This document shows positions 2,980 to 61,237 of a stretch of 64,000 bases of DNA, one piece after another (within the stretch, counting starts at the first letter, position 1; every line of letters begins with the position of its first letter). The notes beneath the pieces were generated by a model, which ran no database searches, was not told the DNA's origin, and saw only the letters and a list, made by a program, of their open reading frames with translations. Position numbers and translations under genes: made by a program. The DNA is taken from assembly GCA_964591855.1 (NCBI GenBank), contig CAZQAZ010000002.1, positions 36,851 to 100,850 of the forward strand. Direction: 5' to 3'. This stretch comes from Candidatus Woesearchaeota archaeon (lineage in GTDB: Archaea > Nanobdellota > Nanobdellia > CAZCWL01 > CAZQAZ01).

Positions 2980-5078
2980 GAAAATTTGTTTATATTGCTG
3001 CTGTTGTATTGATTCTGCTAGTTGTACATCTGTCACTAGGGCTGCAGTACGACCAGAATACTAAGTGTGGAGATAAGGCCTTATCTAACAAGTTTGTTTT
3101 CTCTATTGATAACGGCTGTAAGCCATACGGTCAGAGTGGTAAGTATGTATTTACTTTTAGGGATGGGTTAGCAGCTAGAGGGGCATGTTTTGCAGAGGAT
3201 GGAAGATGTACAGAAAGCAGGTGTGATTTCTCACAACCAGATGGTTCCTTTTGTGCAGTAGGTGTTGGCATAGATAAAGGTGCTACGGAGTATGGTGCTA
3301 TTTGTAGTAGTAAAGATTATGCAGCATGGGACAACTCTTCAGGAGCATGCGTCGAATGTTCAGGAATATATGAGCTTGGAAAGTATGCCGACCAAAAAGA
3401 TATATACTTATCTCCAGAGAGTCCGCGTATAGACTCAAGTATAATGACTTTGCCAAAAGACACTCTTGGTGAGACAAGAAAGACAGTAGAGTCAGGTTGT
3501 GCAATTAGGATGGGATCTCCACTTGATGTTTATTGGTGCGATGAGTACTATCCCTTCTCTGAGGGCGAAGAATTAAACGAAGATCAAATTGACTTTTACC
3601 TTGATAAAGGAATATTTAGGCCAGATTCCTACAGGAAGGTTATTAAAAGTGAAGGTGATGACTTTGAAAAGTATGAATACTCGGATCCTATTCCCTCTAC
3701 AGAACTTCCACCGATAGCAACAGAGTGTTATACAAAGAATAAGTTTGGACAAGGGAAGTGTGCAGCTTACTGTGGTTATGATGGACAGTTGCATGCTATG
3801 GAATGTGTTGACGATAATGAGTGCCCAGACGCATTCCTCATCACCAAAGATCCAGACTCATCGGACTACTTCCCAAGATATGAAATAAGAAGATCTGTGA
3901 GGCACTGTACAAGGAAACTCCCATTTGAATGTGCAGTCGATTCCGAAGAGGATTTGGATGACTCAAGACAGGCATGTGCAGCTTACGGACTTCAATACAT
4001 TAAAGCAGGAGAGGAAAATGTAGGAGAGTATGTAGACACAGATACACTTGGATGTTGTGGAGATGATGTTTATGCAAATGGGAGACCAAAGGAATTTATA
4101 AGGTACAGGGTGGTTGTTGGAGGAAGGACAGATTATAGTGATGTAGCTTGTTGTGGAGGAGAGGATAGATGTGTATACAATGGCAAGTGTTACAAAGAAG
4201 GATCAGCTGTTACCATAGATGGAAGGAAAGCACATTGTTATAACGGTGTTTGGGTGGCAAGAGGCTTAGACTTATATTATGGCTATCCTTCATATGTAGA
4301 ACTTCCAAAGTGTGGAGACTATATATGTGATGTCTCCACAGGTGAGAATTGTTTCACCTGCCCAATAGACTGTAGCTTTGATAGAGAATTCTCAAGTGTG
4401 GAAGTGTTTGACAAGGAAGTAATGCACAAAGGAGATAAGGATTATTATCCAGACGAAGTTGGAAATTACCATAACAATTCCTTTGATCTTACATGGTCCG
4501 ATAAGATAGTATGCGCTCCGTACTCCAACTTAAAATATAAAAGTCTTTATGGCTGGACTAGAGAAAAGACTAATTTCAATAATTCAAGAGTTGTTGTAAA
4601 GTGCGATAGTGACGAAGGTAAGGGTTGCGACGATGAGTTATCCTGCGAAGGACTATTCTGGTTCAAGCAATCCTCTAATGCTTTCTGCGTTAAGGCTTCG
4701 CCTGGGGATAAGCTTGAAGTTGAGTTGGAGGATGAAAATAGTGGTGATCACAGCAAGATCTTCACTGTAGAAGAAATAGATCCAACAGCAACAGACAGGA
4801 CGAAACCATTTGGATGCTTAAACAAAGGGATAGTATGTTTTTATGTTGATGTACTTGGATTTGACTCCCATAATGTGGAAGAAGACTACGTAGATAAAAT
4901 TAAGAGTGTTAAATACATTCAGTATCCTAAATCAGTTAGATCAACATGTGAATATGATTCGGAATGTGAATCTCATAACTGTGCTAAGTTTGGAGTGACA
5001 GGTGTGTGCTGTCCTTATGGTTACAAATTCAACGGAGAGGAGTGTTACCTTCCAGAGCAGTTTGATTACGACTCTTAG
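2976..5078 (+). CDS. Cysteine-rich secreted/membrane-anchored protein (700 aa) with N-terminal hydrophobic signal/anchor
   Basis: ATG overlaps the upstream stop. N-terminus MRKFVYIAAVVLILLVV is hydrophobic. Many paired Cys (CCGG, CxxC). Confidence 0.6.
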   Translation: MRKFVYIAAVVLILLVVHLSLGLQYDQNTKCGDKALSNKFVFSIDNGCKPYGQSGKYVFTFRDGLAARGACFAEDGRCTESRCDFSQPDGSFCAVGVGIDKGATEYGAICSSKDYAAWDNSSGACVECSGIYELGKYADQKDIYLSPESPRIDSSIMTLPKDTLGETRKTVESGCAIRMGSPLDVYWCDEYYPFSEGEELNEDQIDFYLDKGIFRPDSYRKVIKSEGDDFEKYEYSDPIPSTELPPIATECYTKNKFGQGKCAAYCGYDGQLHAMECVDDNECPDAFLITKDPDSSDYFPRYEIRRSVRHCTRKLPFECAVDSEEDLDDSRQACAAYGLQYIKAGEENVGEYVDTDTLGCCGDDVYANGRPKEFIRYRVVVGGRTDYSDVACCGGEDRCVYNGKCYKEGSAVTIDGRKAHCYNGVWVARGLDLYYGYPSYVELPKCGDYICDVSTGENCFTCPIDCSFDREFSSVEVFDKEVMHKGDKDYYPDEVGNYHNNSFDLTWSDKIVCAPYSNLKYKSLYGWTREKTNFNNSRVVVKCDSDEGKGCDDELSCEGLFWFKQSSNAFCVKASPGDKLEVELEDENSGDHSKIFTVEEIDPTATDRTKPFGCLNKGIVCFYVDVLGFDSHNVEEDYVDKIKSVKYIQYPKSVRSTCEYDSECESHNCAKFGVTGVCCPYGYKFNGEECYLPEQFDYDS

Positions 5079-13796: not shown

Positions 13797-13868
13797 GGGC
13801 TTGTGGTCTAGGGGTATGACGTCGCCCTTACACGGCGAAGGTCGCCGGTTCGAATCCGGCCAAGCCCA
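13797..13868 (+). tRNA. tRNA-Val (anticodon TAC)
   Basis: Cloverleaf folded by hand. Acceptor GGGCTTG/CAAGCCC, anticodon loop CTTACAC, T-arm GCCGG-TTCGAAT-CCGGC. No encoded CCA. Confidence 0.85.
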
Positions 13869-17996: not shown

Positions 17997-18069
17997 AGCC
18001 CCGTCGTCTAGTGGTCAAGGATGCGGGCCTTTGGAGCCTGAGACCCCGGTTCGAATCCGGGCGGGGCTA
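17997..18069 (+). tRNA. tRNA-Gln (anticodon TTG)
   Basis: Acceptor AGCCCCG/CGGGGCT. Anticodon stem CGGGC/GCCTG with loop CTTTGGA. T-arm CCCGG-TTCGAAT-CCGGG. The D-arm pairing is imperfect in the hand fold. Confidence 0.75.
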
Positions 18070-19720: not shown

Positions 19721-20848
19721 CTAAAGAATGTATGGTCCAACAATGTTAATTATAAGAATGATGGTCACGAATCCTATTATGGCATTTGCTATGCTAAGCC
19801 TTAACTTATCGTTCTTCGTGAAGTATCCTAAGAACTCAAAGAGCATCTTACACCCATCTGTTATCCAGAGTACGGGCAAGAAGTTGATTATACCTATAGC
19901 CATATTCAACAAGCCAAGCCAGAATATTAAGTTATATAATCCTATTAGTATTGATCCTTCAAAGTCCCTTGGTGCGTAGTGATCTCTAAATTCCCCACCC
20001 AATCTTCCAGATCCGGTGGCTTCGTCTTTGCTTAGTGTTACAATATATTCCCCACGGGATGTATTAAGTACTAGGGTTTGATTAGGCAAGGTATTTGACA
20101 TGAAAGCCTTGAATGTTGTTATGTTCATATGGGTTCCGTTTATAGTGTATATTACGTCACCACTTGATAAATTTGTTAAGGAAAGAGGCTCACCTTTTAT
20201 GTTGAATATACCTATACCCTCATGCATCACATGTGGGGAGCTTGCTATGTGCACAGCGAGGTATGACCCCAAAAGCATGAAAACAAAAGCAAACACTATG
20301 TTTGCACCACTACCTGCGGAAAGAATCCTCAACCTATCTATGATTCTTGCTTTGTTCATACTCTTCTCATCAGGTTCGACAAATGCTAATGGTATAGGTA
20401 AAGGTAATAGAAATCCAAACCCAGCATTTTTAATACGCACTTTCCTAGCGAATGCAACTATTCCATGGGAAAATTCGTGGACAAACGCTAAGAATATTAT
20501 GGATATTATCCCACTTAGCAATGGAAGGTATGGTCCTCCTGGTAACTTTATTCCAGGAAGTATGAAAGAAGCTCCAGGTGTGGTTACTTTGCCAGTAATT
20601 ATGTCAATGGCATTGTTGTACAAAGCTTTTACTCCGACAGCAGTGAAGTAAACTGCAAGCAAAATGAACAGTGTCGACAACACTGTCCAGAACAGAGCTG
20701 GCTTTGCTAGTTTCTTCATGAGGTTTACTCCTTTCTTTGTTCTGTGAAGAAAGAAGACTTTGTTCTCAATCTGAAACTTTTTCCTATTCAAAAGTATGAG
20801 AACAATGACTAATACGTAAAAACTTAAGCTCACTAGGAGAGAGTTCAT
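19721..20848 (-). CDS. Site-2 protease family (M50) membrane metalloprotease with PDZ domain
   Basis: HEFSHG HExxH motif within a transmembrane helix, multiple TM segments, and a central PDZ-like region. Confidence 0.8.
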   Translation of the reverse strand: MNSLLVSLSFYVLVIVLILLNRKKFQIENKVFFLHRTKKGVNLMKKLAKPALFWTVLSTLFILLAVYFTAVGVKALYNNAIDIITGKVTTPGASFILPGIKLPGGPYLPLLSGIISIIFLAFVHEFSHGIVAFARKVRIKNAGFGFLLPLPIPLAFVEPDEKSMNKARIIDRLRILSAGSGANIVFAFVFMLLGSYLAVHIASSPHVMHEGIGIFNIKGEPLSLTNLSSGDVIYTINGTHMNITTFKAFMSNTLPNQTLVLNTSRGEYIVTLSKDEATGSGRLGGEFRDHYAPRDFEGSILIGLYNLIFWLGLLNMAIGIINFLPVLWITDGCKMLFEFLGYFTKNDKLRLSIANAIIGFVTIILIINIVGPYIL

Positions 20849-52864: not shown

Positions 52865-53036
52865 AGTCCCATCTAAGAAATGGGAAGCTTATGCAAAGAA
52901 GAAGAGGATTTGCCCAAAGTGTGGTCCAGGAGTATTTCTAGCAGAGCATAAAGATAGGTTACACTGTGGTAAGTGCGGGTACACAGAATTTAAGAGACAA
53001 GAAAAGCAAGAAAATACTCAAGAATCGAAGCAGTAA
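52812..53036 (+). CDS. rps27ae: 30S ribosomal protein S27ae
   Basis: [28 protein letters not shown] zinc ribbon. K-rich N-terminus. Overlaps the S24e 3' end in another frame. Confidence 0.75.
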
Positions 53037-53314
53037 AGCACGTCTTTAAAGTTTACTATCTTATCTCCTTTGATTTTCACACCTTCGGATTTTAACATCT
53101 TTATCTTAGATTTCTTCCCACCTTTGCCAGAGTATCCACCAACTTTTCCAGAGCTTAATACAACCCTATGGCAAGGTACTCTTGGGGCATAAGGATTCTT
53201 TTTCATCAGCATTCCAACAACTCTTGGATGCAATCCTAAAGCTTTTCCCAATTCTTTATAAGTTGTTACCTTTCCCTTAGGGACCTTTAACAATCTCTTG
53301 TAGATTTCTTCCAT
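53018..53314 (-). CDS. ogt: O6-alkylguanine-DNA alkyltransferase (MGMT/Ogt) C-terminal-domain-only protein
   Basis: [17 protein letters not shown]...PCHRVV active-site motif. Only about 98 aa. Start at ATG; the track start is TTG at 53317. Confidence 0.65.
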
Positions 53315-53329
53315 CAAAAGTATTTTAAC

Positions 53330-54313
53330 TTGTGTTCAATTATAAGGATTATGATAGTGTTGGGTATAGAGTCAACTGCACATACATTTGGTGTAGGAAT
53401 AATAGATTCAGAAGAGAGAAAAGTTCTATCAAATGTAAGAGACACTTTTAAACCTCCTAAAGGAGGTTTTGTTCCAAGAGATTTGTCAGAACATCATGCT
53501 AAAGTTTGTTATGATGTGACACAAAAGGCATTGGATGAGGCTAAGCTTTCTATAAAAGATATTGACAGGATAGCCTATTCTCGTGGGCCAGGAATAGGAC
53601 AAGCTCTTTTGATAGGTTCAACTTTTGCCAAGACTCTTCACATAAGACATAAGATACCTGTAGTTGGAGTCAATCACTGTATAGCTCACTTGGAGATAGG
53701 GAGATTCTTAACGGAGTGTAAGGATCCAGTTATGCTTTACGTTTCGGGAGGAAACACCCAAGTCATATCTTACGAAGGTAAAAGATACAGAGTCTTTGGA
53801 GAGACTATGGATATAGCTCTAGGGAACTTGATAGATGTTTTTGGTAGAGAAGCAGGCCTTCCCACCCCAGCAGGTCCTATTGTTGAAAAGCTTGCAAAGA
53901 ACGGGAAATATGTAGAATTGCCTTATGTGGTCAAGGGTATGGATGTGTCACTAGCAGGAATGTTAACTAACCTTAAAGATAAACTTAAGAGAGGATACAA
54001 AGTTGAAGATCTTGCATATTCGTTGCAGGAAACAGCGTTTGCTATGTTGGTTGAAGTAACAGAGAGAGCTATGGCTCATACCGAGAAGAAGGAAATGTTG
54101 CTTACTGGTGGGGTGGCTGCAAATAAAAGACTCCAGGAAATGAGTAAGATTATGTGCGAAGAAAGAGGTGCACGTTTTTACACCATACCTTTACAGTATG
54201 CAGGAGACAATGGTGCAATGATAGCCGTTGTTGGAGCCTTAGCAGAACCTGATAACAACTTTGACATAGACCCAAACTGGCGTACAGACCAAGTTAAGAT
54301 AACTTGGCGTTAG
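53330..54313 (+). CDS. kae1: KEOPS subunit Kae1 (tRNA t6A37 threonylcarbamoyltransferase)
   Basis: GIESTAHTFGVGI and HH metal-binding motifs of the Kae1/TsaD family. The true start is possibly the internal Met at 53351. Confidence 0.9.
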   Translation: MCSIIRIMIVLGIESTAHTFGVGIIDSEERKVLSNVRDTFKPPKGGFVPRDLSEHHAKVCYDVTQKALDEAKLSIKDIDRIAYSRGPGIGQALLIGSTFAKTLHIRHKIPVVGVNHCIAHLEIGRFLTECKDPVMLYVSGGNTQVISYEGKRYRVFGETMDIALGNLIDVFGREAGLPTPAGPIVEKLAKNGKYVELPYVVKGMDVSLAGMLTNLKDKLKRGYKVEDLAYSLQETAFAMLVEVTERAMAHTEKKEMLLTGGVAANKRLQEMSKIMCEERGARFYTIPLQYAGDNGAMIAVVGALAEPDNNFDIDPNWRTDQVKITWR

Positions 54314-54498
54314 AATGTTGGAAAGTATTATTAAAGTTAATCCCTTCTAAATCTTATGGCAGAAGGGGAAGTAAGTGTTGTGCCATTTTTGCTGCAGATG
54401 TTAATAGGAGTAATAATAGGACTATTCTTTGGGCCAGGAATAGCTTAATATTAATCTGTTAATAGCGAGTTGGATTGGTTATGGTGGGGTTGTTGTAG

Positions 54499-55320
54499 AT
54501 GCCAGCGAATGTTAATGTGGCATTTGTAGAGGCTGAGAAAGAATACGAGGAAGCTAGAACTAATGAGGAGAAGCTTAAAGCCTTAAAGAAGATGCTTTCT
54601 GTGGCGCCAAAGCACAAAGGTACAGAAAAAATGCTAGCCGAAATAAAAGCAAAGATATCAAAGCTCCAGAAAATAATCCAAAGAGAGAAGCAATTAAAGA
54701 GGAAAGGTAAACCCACTTCAATTAGGAAGCAAGGTGCAGCCACAGTATGTCTTTTCTCTTTACCGAATACAGGAAAGTCTTATCTTATGAATATGTTAAC
54801 AGGATCGAACATTCCTTCGACTTTAAAACCATTTGAAACTGTTGAACCGAAGGTTGGAATGATAGACTATGATGGCGTTAAGATTCAGCTAGTAGAACTT
54901 CCATCAGTATTTGAAGGCTACCACAAAAAGTATCCAAATTACATGAGTATAGCAAGAGTCTCTGATCTCATTGCAATACTTGGTGATCCAAAGATTCCAA
55001 CTAAGGAGTTGGAACAAGCAGGAGTGAAAGTGCCTACAGTTCTTATAACTCCAGAAAATGCTAAAGATTTAATATGGAAAAAGCTGGATCTGATAAGGGT
55101 GTATACTAAAGAACCGGGGAAGAGTGTTACTAAAGAGGCTATGGGTCTTAAAAGGGGCTCGAGGGTAATAGACGCAGCTGAGAGAATACATAAAGACTTT
55201 GTCAAGAAGTTTAAGTATGCGAGAATATGGGGCAAGAGTGCTTCGTTCCCAGGGCAGACAGTTGGACCTAATCATGTACTTGAGGATGGTGATGTTATTG
55301 AAATCCACACCAAAAAATAA
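54499..55320 (+). CDS. DRG/Obg-family-like protein with TGS domain and degenerate GTPase motifs
   Basis: N-terminal DRG helix and C-terminal TGS domain (RVIDAAERIHKDFVKKFKYARIWGKS) are conserved. G1 reads SLPNTGKS (no first Gly), G3 reads ELPS instead of DxxG, and NKxD is absent. 273 aa versus about 365. Confidence 0.6.
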   Translation: MPANVNVAFVEAEKEYEEARTNEEKLKALKKMLSVAPKHKGTEKMLAEIKAKISKLQKIIQREKQLKRKGKPTSIRKQGAATVCLFSLPNTGKSYLMNMLTGSNIPSTLKPFETVEPKVGMIDYDGVKIQLVELPSVFEGYHKKYPNYMSIARVSDLIAILGDPKIPTKELEQAGVKVPTVLITPENAKDLIWKKLDLIRVYTKEPGKSVTKEAMGLKRGSRVIDAAERIHKDFVKKFKYARIWGKSASFPGQTVGPNHVLEDGDVIEIHTKK

Positions 55321-55921
55321 AGAGAAAGTAGCAAGGGAGAAAATAGCCCAAGCTGCGGAGGCTATTATCTATAAAGAAGGGGATAAAATAATCAAATATA
55401 GGATCAAGAAAAAGTATAGAATCCAAAAGATAGATGAAGAACTAAGGAGAAGAAGAACAAAGCTCGAGTCTAAAATATTACTCCGTGCAAGAAGATATGG
55501 AGTGAATGTTCCAGCAGTTCTAGAGGAAAATAAATATGAAATAATTATGGAATACATAGACGGCCAACAACTCAAGAATGTTTTGAATAAGAAAAACTAC
55601 AAATCCTTAATGAAGAAGGTAGCAGAACAGGTTTCTTTGTTGCATGGAGCAGGTATAGTTCATGGAGACTTAACAACATCTAATATGATCTTAAGGAATA
55701 ATGATGTGTTCTTAATAGACTTTGGGCTTGCACAGAATTCTAATAAAATAGAGGATAGGGCAGTAGACTTGTATCTACTCAAGCAAGCCTTAGAGTCTAA
55801 GCATCATGAGATTTCAGATGCTTGCTTCGAGACTTTTATGAAATACTATAAGATAGAGGACAAACAACAAGTTGTTGATAGGTTGAAGGACATTGAGAAA
55901 AGAAGAAGGTACAAGTCTTAG
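55199..55921 (+). CDS. bud32: KEOPS kinase Bud32
   Basis: IAQAAEAIIYKEG...IIMEYIDG...HGDLTTSNMIL RIO-like kinase motifs. True start is probably an internal Met around 55286-55292. Confidence 0.75.
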   Translation: MSRSLSMREYGARVLRSQGRQLDLIMYLRMVMLLKSTPKNKEKVAREKIAQAAEAIIYKEGDKIIKYRIKKKYRIQKIDEELRRRRTKLESKILLRARRYGVNVPAVLEENKYEIIMEYIDGQQLKNVLNKKNYKSLMKKVAEQVSLLHGAGIVHGDLTTSNMILRNNDVFLIDFGLAQNSNKIEDRAVDLYLLKQALESKHHEISDACFETFMKYYKIEDKQQVVDRLKDIEKRRRYKS

Positions 55922-61165: not shown

Positions 61166-61237
61166 GCGCCAATAGTCTAGTGGTTAGGATGCGGGCTTGC
61201 CAAGCCTGTGACCCGGGTTCGAATCCCGGTTGGCGCA
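61166..61237 (+). tRNA. tRNA-Gly (anticodon GCC)
   Basis: Acceptor GCGCCAA/TTGGCGC. Anticodon stem CGGGC/GCCTG with loop TTGCCAA. T-arm CCCGG-GTTCGAATC-CCGG. TATA-like TTTTATAAT/TAATAAAT upstream. Confidence 0.85.

Follow-up and report, generated by a model that had tools for sequence, protein, structure and literature searches.

A short-form DRG-like protein lacking the guanine-recognition half of its G domain is encoded between kae1 and bud32 in a Woesearchaeota archaeon

In the genome of a Candidatus Woesearchaeota archaeon, a short-form DRG-like protein is encoded by an open reading frame (ORF) located between kae1 and bud32, two KEOPS genes of the N6-threonylcarbamoyladenosine (t6A) pathway. 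This gene (54499..55320), which is named drgS in this report, was analyzed within a 64-kb stretch of the 118-kb contig CAZQAZ010000002.1 (64,000 nucleotides, referred to below as the window). DRGs (developmentally regulated GTP-binding proteins) are portrayed in the literature as strongly conserved GTPases that cannot function without their GTPase activity (PMC3510508, PMC8629797). Based on the results described here, and with a probability of approximately 0.72, drgS is a functional ortholog, reduced and vertically inherited, of the archaeal ribosome-associated Obg-family NTPase of DRG/Rbg1 type. The encoded protein retains three parts: the N-terminal helix-turn-helix (HTH), the half of the G domain that binds phosphate (with the P-loop, sensor Thr, and switch-II Glu-x-Pro), and the TGS domain. 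The elements that have been lost are S5D2L and those that confer guanine specificity, namely NKxD, the helix and strand that follow it, and the G5 loop. Judged from its sequence, this protein would most likely bind a magnesium-nucleoside triphosphate (Mg-NTP) through the phosphates and would probably hydrolyze it, with a relaxed or altered base specificity.

drgS encodes half of a DRG-type G domain

drgS starts with a DRG-type helical domain, continues with the G1–G3 half of a G domain of the Obg/DRG type, and ends with a TGS domain (Table 1). In Pfam, the MMR_HSR1 family matches residues 83–171 (E = 3.4e-11). Because only positions 2–96 of the 113-position profile are covered, this match ends short of the G4 region. 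The TGS family (PF02824) matches residues 199–271 over its entire profile (1–60/60, E = 1.5e-19), and the DRG-specific insert PF16897 (MMR_HSR1_Xtn/S5D2L) has no match in drgS. Using phmmer, the N-terminal domain aligns from residue 19 onward with residues 8 to ~60 of Rbg1. Within this domain, residues 24–57 correspond to the N-terminal helix cited in the initial annotation, which had been made from the DNA sequence alone, and Pro37, His39, and Lys40 are invariant in the short-form alignment. The best sequence matches in the PDB are yeast Rbg2 (7nrc, 2.4e-26) and Rbg1 (4a9a, 8e-26). These matches, the Pfam matches, and those of the two flanking genes (Table 1) lie well outside the range of chance. 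An AlphaFold2 model, built from a 38-sequence family alignment, is compact and confident, with a mean predicted local distance difference test (pLDDT) score of 90.3 and a predicted template modeling (pTM) score of 0.70. The model contains N-terminal helices at residues 7–18, 22–35, and 40–68, followed by a half G domain with five strands (81–85, 118–124, 127–133, 157–161, and 180–183) and helices at residues 93–101, 141–154, 165–173, and 188–196, after which the TGS domain is found. When this model was compared with the PDB using Foldseek, Rbg1 and Rbg2 filled the top four positions (E values down to 1.4e-17), and HflX, YchF, and Nog1 came next. The affinity to DRG/Rbg1 proposed in the initial annotation is thus upheld by both the sequence and the fold searches, and the position of the ORF, its length of 273 aa, the N-terminal helix, and the SLPNTGKS and ELPS motifs were all as described there.

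Relative to Rbg1, drgS aligns in two blocks: residues 19–177 correspond to Rbg1 residues 8–179, and residues 190–269 correspond to Rbg1 residues 292–373. The intervening ~112 residues of Rbg1 (180–291), which comprise S5D2L, G4, and G5, are replaced by ~12 residues in drgS. This result is in agreement with the earlier claim that the NKxD/G5 region and about 100 aa are missing. In Rbg1, S5D2L spans residues 176–240 and is inserted between G3 and G4 (PMC3510508). In the multiple alignment, the PTVLI strand of drgS (residues 179–183) aligns with the NKxD-bearing strand of the Rbg1 and Pyrococcus proteins. The G4-carrying strand, which is modeled at residues 180–183, seems therefore to have been kept, and it is the NKxD residues, the helix and strand that follow them, and the G5 loop that are gone. 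Motif tables were compiled from 290 collected family members, which include 86 short forms. In these tables, the G4 NKxD and G5 SAx motifs are absent in 82/86 short forms.

A gene that is ~110 aa shorter than a canonical DRG could also be a pseudogene fragment or an assembly artefact of a full-length DRG, but this explanation is almost certainly wrong. The ORF is open and uninterrupted, base composition is even across the region, and the same protein, 100% identical and in the same gene context, is present on independently assembled contigs from other samples. The length and the junction are likewise shared by dozens of homologs, and the predicted structure is compact and confident. The initial annotation had allowed for intact G motifs overlooked by eye and for a frameshifted remnant of the G domain nearby. 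Proper alignment restores no such motif, and a tblastn search of the whole window with the missing S5D2L/G4/G5 segment from six relatives gave short, scattered matches only (E ≥ 0.01). A pseudogene or frameshift remnant was rejected on the basis of this search.

The known system nearest to drgS is DRG/Rbg1–Rbg2 (COG1163; Obg–HflX superfamily, TRAFAC), and especially its Thermococcales/Theionarchaea subfamily, such as the 387-aa P. furiosus protein P0198. Shared features include an HTH with K-[HN]-K-[GA]-T, a P-loop resembling the GxxNxGKS type, the FTT/FET sensor Thr, a strand 3 of the form Q-[LIV]-[LIV]-E-x-P, and a TGS domain with IHKDF. In contrast to DRG, drgS has neither S5D2L nor the G4 NKxD with its following helix and strand and the G5 SAx. 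The G3 position reads ELPS, as opposed to DxPG in eukaryotic DRG and EVPG in Thermococcales, and the first residue of the P-loop is Ser where the DRG type is GxP[SN]xGKS, although GKS and the Asn are kept. By descent, drgS belongs with the archaeal DRG subfamily, and its mode of action would be that of a DRG. Because DxxG, NKxD/SAx, and S5D2L are all wanting, it is filed as a reduced variant rather than as a canonical member.

Short-form DRGs are numerous in DPANN archaea

Among 5.8 billion proteins searched, 1080 homologs of drgS were identified, the closest of which is 271 aa long and 58% identical. Among the best 120 homologs, 85 have lengths of 230–295 aa (~70% short forms), with 260–295 aa predominating. 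When one genome per GTDB species was scanned, relatives of the DRG subfamily were found in at least 565 species-level genomes. The best 80 of these at least 565 loci are nearly all from DPANN archaea (Woesearchaeota, Nanoarchaeota/Nanoarchaeia, Aenigmatarchaeota, Micrarchaeota, and Parvarchaeota); a single Hydrothermota bacterium is also included. When 1.84 billion representatives of 50% identity clusters were searched exhaustively with a profile, 741 representatives were obtained at E ≤ 1e-30. By length, the best 150 of those representatives comprise 34 of ≤300 aa, 59 of 301–345 aa, and 57 that are longer. Database labels for the family are "TGS domain-containing protein", "ribosome-interacting GTPase 1", and "50S ribosome-binding GTPase". 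drgS is a typical member of this large, conserved short-form DRG family and not a one-off decayed gene. The short-form family has apparently been undescribed until now: no paper on short or G4/G5-less DRGs was found in the literature searched, which was limited in coverage. The "Drg1" of PMC8481954 was considered and rejected, as it is an unrelated AAA-ATPase and not a DRG.

Subfamily members were also observed in bacteria. The WOR-3 proteins P0116, P0091, and P0101 (329–346 aa) and the Hydrothermota protein at L063 4442–5425 have DTPP at G3 and NKLD at G4 and are without S5D2L; one bacterial member is located on a 1.07-Mb contig. According to a review, DRGs are not found in bacteria (PMC8629797), and the WOR-3 and Hydrothermota members do not fit this statement. 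These genes are probably archaea-to-bacteria transfers.

The G1 and G3 sequences are lineage signatures

The initial annotation had taken the P-loop and G3 sequences of drgS as signs of degeneration, a view that the motif tables do not support. GK[ST] and the sensor Thr are each present in 85/86 short forms, and both the Glu and the Pro of G3 are present in 86/86. The P-loop Asn at position 4 is found in 72/86. The Gly of G3 is replaced by Ser or Ala in 82/86, and a Ser-first P-loop is seen in 4/86. This same Ser-first P-loop occurs in 12 full-length DPANN-type proteins (368–382 aa) that have E-x-P-[A/S/P] and S5D2L. In 11 of the 12, NKxD is intact, the remaining protein having SRSD; an S-x-x G5-like triplet is present in 12/12 and SAx in 10/12. 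The G3 Glu extends to 270 of the 290 family members. These members include the 387-aa proteins of P. furiosus, P. abyssi, and many Thermococcus, annotated at source as RBG1/RBG2 or DRG, in which EVPG is combined with NKGD, SAK, and S5D2L in a complete G domain. Because both coexist with guanine-binding motifs in full-length relatives, the Ser-first P-loop and ExP[SA] are, as judged from these alignments, lineage signatures and not decay. Relative to the family consensus (positions of ≥80% conservation), drgS itself differs at four positions only: G87S, L97M, E118K, and K249S.

The conserved core is consistent with nucleotide binding

Conservation among the short forms, expressed as the mean top-residue frequency of each segment, is 0.75 for G3, 0.73 for the P-loop, 0.69 for strands 2–3, and 0.66 for the TGS domain. 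The most variable segment is the former G4 region, with a value of 0.31. Binding of Mg-NTP through the phosphates is predicted because conservation peaks in the P-loop/switch core and is lowest in the former G4 region. Such a pattern would be expected if phosphate binding and the switch machinery were still in use and the base were no longer read specifically; it is unlike that expected for a nucleotide-free scaffold. The conserved P-loop Asn (Asn90 in drgS) is at the position presumed to hold the monovalent-cation ligand of K+-dependent GTPases, of which DRG1 is one, and its presence hints that the short forms may depend on a monovalent cation. DRG1 is K+-dependent (PMC8629797).

The main rival to an active NTPase is a nucleotide-free pseudoGTPase, in which the truncated G domain binds nothing and the protein is a constitutive ribosome or RNA scaffold that acts through its HTH and TGS domains. 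The initial annotation leaned in this direction by describing drgS as "GTPase-dead". Both G4 (NKxD) and G5 are wholly missing, the G3 Gly is Ser or Ala in nearly all short forms, and the first P-loop Gly is Ser in drgS. Moreover, pseudoGTPases are a recognized class, and p190RhoGAP pG domains, CENP-M, and the AAGAB N-domain resemble drgS in having a G-domain fold from which canonical G motifs are missing. Nucleotide-free pseudoGTPases are usually without phosphate- and Mg-ligand residues, and their P-loops are degenerate. In drgS and its relatives, in contrast, GKS, the sensor Thr, and the acid at the Walker-B position are near-invariant (85–86 of 86, as are the G3 Glu and Pro) in sequences that share only 40–58% identity, and these residues lie in the best-conserved segments. 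In addition, the G1 and G3 states are shared with full-length relatives that keep guanine-binding motifs. A nucleotide-free protein is for these reasons considered unlikely, and the label "GTPase-dead" is not supported in that sense.

Two other TRAFAC proteins provide a comparison for an NTPase of altered specificity. SpoIVA is a TRAFAC GTPase that was turned into an ATPase through degeneration of NKxD (PMC7952092). As a precedent, SpoIVA still has Walker A, the sensor Thr, and Walker B but is no longer specific for guanine and works with a different NTP (PMC7952092). It differs from drgS in belonging to a separate lineage (an Era-derived sporulation coat protein) and in retaining an altered G4/G5 structure, which in drgS is deleted. 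YchF/OLA1 is similar to drgS in its Obg-family G domain, altered base specificity, TGS-type C-terminal domain, and association with the ribosome. Unlike drgS, YchF keeps a modified G4 (NxxE) and a coiled-coil insert, and the fold similarity of drgS to YchF is lower than to Rbg1. Membership of drgS in the YchF family was tested and rejected: PF06071 scores 20.6 bits against a cutoff of 27, TIGR00092 scores 23 bits against 279, and the NCBIfam YchF models match fragments only.

A ribosome-binding mode can be proposed by analogy. On the ribosome, the HTH and G domain of Rbg1 bind the 60S subunit and the sarcin–ricin loop, the TGS domain binds helix 5 of the 18S rRNA, and S5D2L contacts the A-site tRNA (bioRxiv 10.1101/2020.07.06.190082). 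drgS would probably dock in the same manner, with the HTH and G domain on the large subunit and sarcin–ricin loop and the TGS domain on small-subunit helix 5. In this docking, the S5D2L contact with A-site tRNA would be absent. In yeast, deletion of S5D2L leaves a conditionally functional protein in which GTP hydrolysis persists (PMC3510508).

Probable separate losses of S5D2L and G4/G5

When sorted by length, the family forms a series of architectures. Proteins of at least 361 aa constitute the full-length class and contain S5D2L, [N/T]KxD, and SAx. In the 336–360 aa class (class D), S5D2L is kept and G4/G5 are gone. In the 320–335 aa class (class C), S5D2L is gone and NKxD and SAL are kept; this class includes the bacterial WOR-3/Hydrothermota proteins with DTPP. 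The 296–319 aa and ≤295 aa classes are without G4/G5, and the shortest (class A) is without S5D2L as well. Given these intermediate architectures, the two losses are read as separate, and alignments suggest that S5D2L and G4/G5 disappeared in different lineages. drgS is the common end state of the reduction series.

The commonest neighbors of the short forms are a divergent MscS-type channel gene directly upstream (29 loci) and a gene for the peptidyl-tRNA hydrolase PTH2 downstream on the same strand (19 loci). A full-length DPANN protein, P0280 (371 aa, with S5D2L and NKGD), occupies the same MscS(−)/DRG/PTH2 slot as many short forms do, and orthologous reduction is therefore favored. The earlier suggestion of a reduced-genome adaptation is supported in that the short forms in the sample come almost exclusively from DPANN archaea, with the full-length DPANN form in the same slot. 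An extended array of Woesearchaeota type (L007–L086, e.g., L027 and L045; L089 3452–5490) was also observed, in which a divergent MscS-like gene and a DRG are followed, often, by an Ogg-type glycosylase and a conserved 117-aa protein without known function, and then by PTH2. The DRG in this MscS–PTH2 array can be either short or full-length. The DRG–PTH2 link is far more widespread than the KEOPS link described below and fits a role at stalled ribosomes.

Alternatively, drgS could be a neofunctionalized duplicate, with a canonical full-length DRG encoded elsewhere in the genome. The scan for DRGs covered 64 kb of a genome of which the contig alone is 118 kb, and full-length and intermediate forms do exist on DPANN-type metagenomic contigs. 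However, a search of the 243 stop-to-stop ORFs of the window with the family hidden Markov model (hmmsearch) detected no second family member beyond drgS, the full-length DPANN form sits in the slot used by short forms, and the series of lengths and motifs is continuous across the family. A duplicate is thus rather improbable, and reduction of an ortholog is preferred. In L001, the locus that represents the window genome, the stretch 19740–20822 (from ~64238 in window numbering, past the 3′ end) has a gene for a 213-aa stand-alone small GTPase with a complete MMR_HSR1 domain (2–113/113), followed by OapB (PF09846) and OapC (PF09845) genes. The organism does, therefore, encode complete G domains.

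The drgS–bud32 pairing belongs to a single clade

The gene order kae1–X–bud32 given in the initial annotation was confirmed by TIGRFAM matches to both flanking genes (Table 1), which also match the two halves of the fused Kae1–Bud32 model NF007174. The start of kae1 is placed at ~53351 by the gene caller. Between the stop codon of drgS (55320) and the conserved N terminus of Bud32, no start codon exists, and bud32 must therefore begin inside drgS, either at an ATG (55292, the choice of the gene caller) or at a TTG (55298), giving an overlap of 29 or 23 nt with the 3′ end of drgS. A GTG start after the drgS stop was ruled out, as the codon is GTA. In the spacer between kae1 and drgS, an A/T-rich box is found ~45 nt upstream of the drgS ATG, and this sequence may reflect a promoter belonging to drgS–bud32. 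No RNA element was detected in the spacer using Rfam at the gathering threshold. A 30-aa ORF called there by one pipeline (54356–54448, +) has no family match and is probably spurious.

Table 1 Features of the kae1–drgS–bud32 locus in window coordinates.
Feature	Position	Strand	Description
kae1, KEOPS t6A transferase	53330..54313	+	TIGR03722 arch_KAE1, 5.9e-136, 452.8 bits vs cutoff 375; directly upstream of drgS
kae1–drgS spacer, 185 nt	54314..54498	+	Shine–Dalgarno-like GGTGGGG (54483–54489), 9 nt before ATG; A/T-rich box TTAATATTAA (54446–54455)
drgS, short-form DRG-like ORF	54499..55320	+	ATG start, 273 aa, uninterrupted
N-terminal helical domain, residues 1–68	54499..54702	+	DRG-type HTH and long basic helix with PKHKGTEK motif
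G1/P-loop SLPNTGKS, residues 87–94	54757..54780	+	Ser in place of first Gly; Asn90, Gly92, Lys93, Ser94 kept
G2/switch I PFETVEP, residues 111–117	54829..54849	+	Sensor Thr113/114 kept; FET variant of FTT
G3 position ELPS, residues 133–136	54895..54906	+	Instead of DxxG; family signature ExP[SA]
Deletion junction, residues 177–187	55027..55059	+	Gap vs Rbg1 180–291; alignment with P. furiosus and Rbg1
TGS domain, residues 198–271	55090..55311	+	PF02824; matches human DRG1 TGS 2eki; IHKDF motif invariant
bud32, KEOPS kinase/ATPase	55292..55921	+	TIGR03724 arch_bud32, 4.4e-61, 205.8 bits vs cutoff 125

Linkage to KEOPS genes was tested by tblastn of Kae1 and Bud32 against 86 loci, and the loci were placed on a neighbor-joining tree of 85 leaves. 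drgS is directly followed by bud32 in 7/85 loci (L001, L003, L005, L009, L011, L012, and L025), all of which fall within one 10-leaf clade. The synteny check called for in the initial annotation thus shows the pairing to be real within this clade. Spacing in the seven genomes ranges from an overlap of 23–29 nt to a gap of ~25 nt, with a 23-nt overlap in L003 and gaps of 4–8 nt in L005, L012, and L025. All 10 members of the clade also have FET instead of FTT in switch I. kae1 adjoins drgS upstream only in the window; it is 4.2–5.7 kb upstream in L009, L011, and L025. Immediately upstream of drgS–bud32 in L009 (5372–5977) and L025 (5079–5660) is sua5/yrdC (PF01300, E = 1.9e-53), whose product, threonylcarbamoyl-AMP synthase, catalyzes the first step of the t6A pathway. 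Within the 64-kb window itself, sua5 was not found. Three different t6A genes (kae1, sua5, and bud32) thus flank drgS within the bud32-linked Nanoarchaeota clade. The region of nrdD, S15, S3Ae, and Taw1 is likewise syntenic in this clade, and the bud32 linkage is a single ancestral arrangement.

Outside this clade, neither kae1 nor bud32 was detected by tblastn within 6 kb at ~70 other DPANN loci, and no t6A gene neighbors the full-length relatives in P. furiosus, Theionarchaea, and one DPANN genome. A family-wide KEOPS linkage was rejected on this basis. cgi121 and pcc1 are absent from the precomputed Pfam annotation of 10 kb on either side of drgS, and drgS itself contains MMR_HSR1 and TGS only, with no homology to the KEOPS subunits Kae1, Bud32, Cgi121, Pcc1, or Pcc2/Gon7. 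The tie of drgS to KEOPS is one of gene adjacency alone. The initial annotation had proposed that drgS was slotted into a conserved kae1–bud32 pair as a KEOPS-associated factor; the conserved unit is instead drgS–bud32, and it is a property of one clade. In the window genome and in this clade, drgS and bud32 are probably co-transcribed and translationally coupled in a t6A/translation neighborhood. This arrangement is interpreted as co-regulation of translation-related genes at the operon level; it is not taken to show that drgS is a KEOPS subunit.

A lineage-specific partnership with KEOPS or the t6A pathway nevertheless has to be weighed. In such a partnership, drgS would work with Bud32, Kae1, and Sua5, for example through Cgi121-like delivery of tRNA by the TGS domain or through coupling of t6A synthesis to the ribosome. 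In RelA-type proteins, TGS domains bind the 3′ end of tRNA. Cgi121, the KEOPS subunit bound to Bud32, binds the CCA tail of tRNA (PMC9889334). bud32 directly follows drgS in seven genomes whose DRG proteins are only 45–58% identical; on the upstream side, drgS adjoins kae1 in the window and sua5/yrdC in L009 and L025. Against such a partnership, the linked genes all belong to one clade of 10 among 85 leaves and represent a single ancestral event. S15, S3Ae, Taw1, and nrdD are syntenic too, so that drgS–bud32 is not singled out; the ~70 DPANN loci and the full-length Pyrococcus, Theionarchaea, and DPANN relatives have no KEOPS or t6A neighbor, and the family-wide neighbor is PTH2 rather than a KEOPS gene. 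This possibility is accordingly regarded as very doubtful. A more specific version, which is speculative and more doubtful still, is that the t6A machinery of this clade has taken on a minimal DRG, encoded in a sua5/kae1–drgS–bud32 operon with translational coupling to bud32. This DRG would bind Bud32 and either hold the tRNA 3′ end with its TGS domain in a Cgi121-like manner or couple KEOPS to the ribosome, and the ATPase site of Bud32 or another partner would make up for the lost half of the G domain. If true, drgS would represent a new accessory subunit of KEOPS with a translational GTPase as its origin.

Several further features of these neighborhoods were observed. In L006, from another DPANN genome, a weak Pcc1-like gene (3613–3822) lies ~1.2 kb upstream of a short DRG in an L37ae–Pcc1–prefoldin cluster, with a divergent MscS gene between them. 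This is probably a coincidental proximity of translation clusters. Neighbor clusters with L37ae, prefoldin-like, and UPF0147-like genes each recur upstream in 6 loci. In the window, a 99-aa protein encoded divergently from kae1 (53018–53317, −) consists of only the C-terminal/DNA-binding domain of O6-methylguanine-DNA methyltransferase (PF01035, 3.5e-23) with the active-site motif PCHRV; the same gene is found upstream of kae1 in L009. The only Rfam matches in the window at the gathering threshold are three tRNA genes (13797–13868, 17997–18069, and 61166–61237, +).

Discussion

Several points weigh against drgS being an active, reduced ortholog of archaeal DRG. At G3, the short forms have Ser or Ala in place of the Gly that normally senses the γ-phosphate through its backbone amide, and without the G4 Lys and the G5 loop, nucleotide affinity could be drastically reduced. 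Nucleotide binding, base preference, hydrolysis, and ribosome binding of drgS are all inferred from sequence. A canonical second DRG may sit elsewhere in the genome, as the scan covered the 64-kb window, and the synteny with three t6A genes exceeds what a generic translation neighborhood strictly needs.

With these points taken into account, an active, reduced ortholog remains the preferred reading. In a large natural family, the half of the G domain that recognizes guanine has been deleted together with the tRNA-contacting S5D2L, yet the phosphate-binding and switch residues are strongly constrained. The clade-specific operon with three t6A genes is a lead and not yet evidence for a role in KEOPS. 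For annotation, "short-form DRG-like NTPase" is recommended over "GTPase" or a bare "TGS domain-containing protein". If active, the short forms would mark out the smallest core with which a ribosome-associated Obg-family NTPase can function and would constitute a natural experiment on which DRG–ribosome contacts are dispensable. They may also add a case of a TRAFAC GTPase that has changed its nucleotide specificity. Finally, the separate losses of S5D2L and G4/G5, as they appear from the alignments, would illustrate cleanly how domains are reduced step by step in archaea with small genomes.

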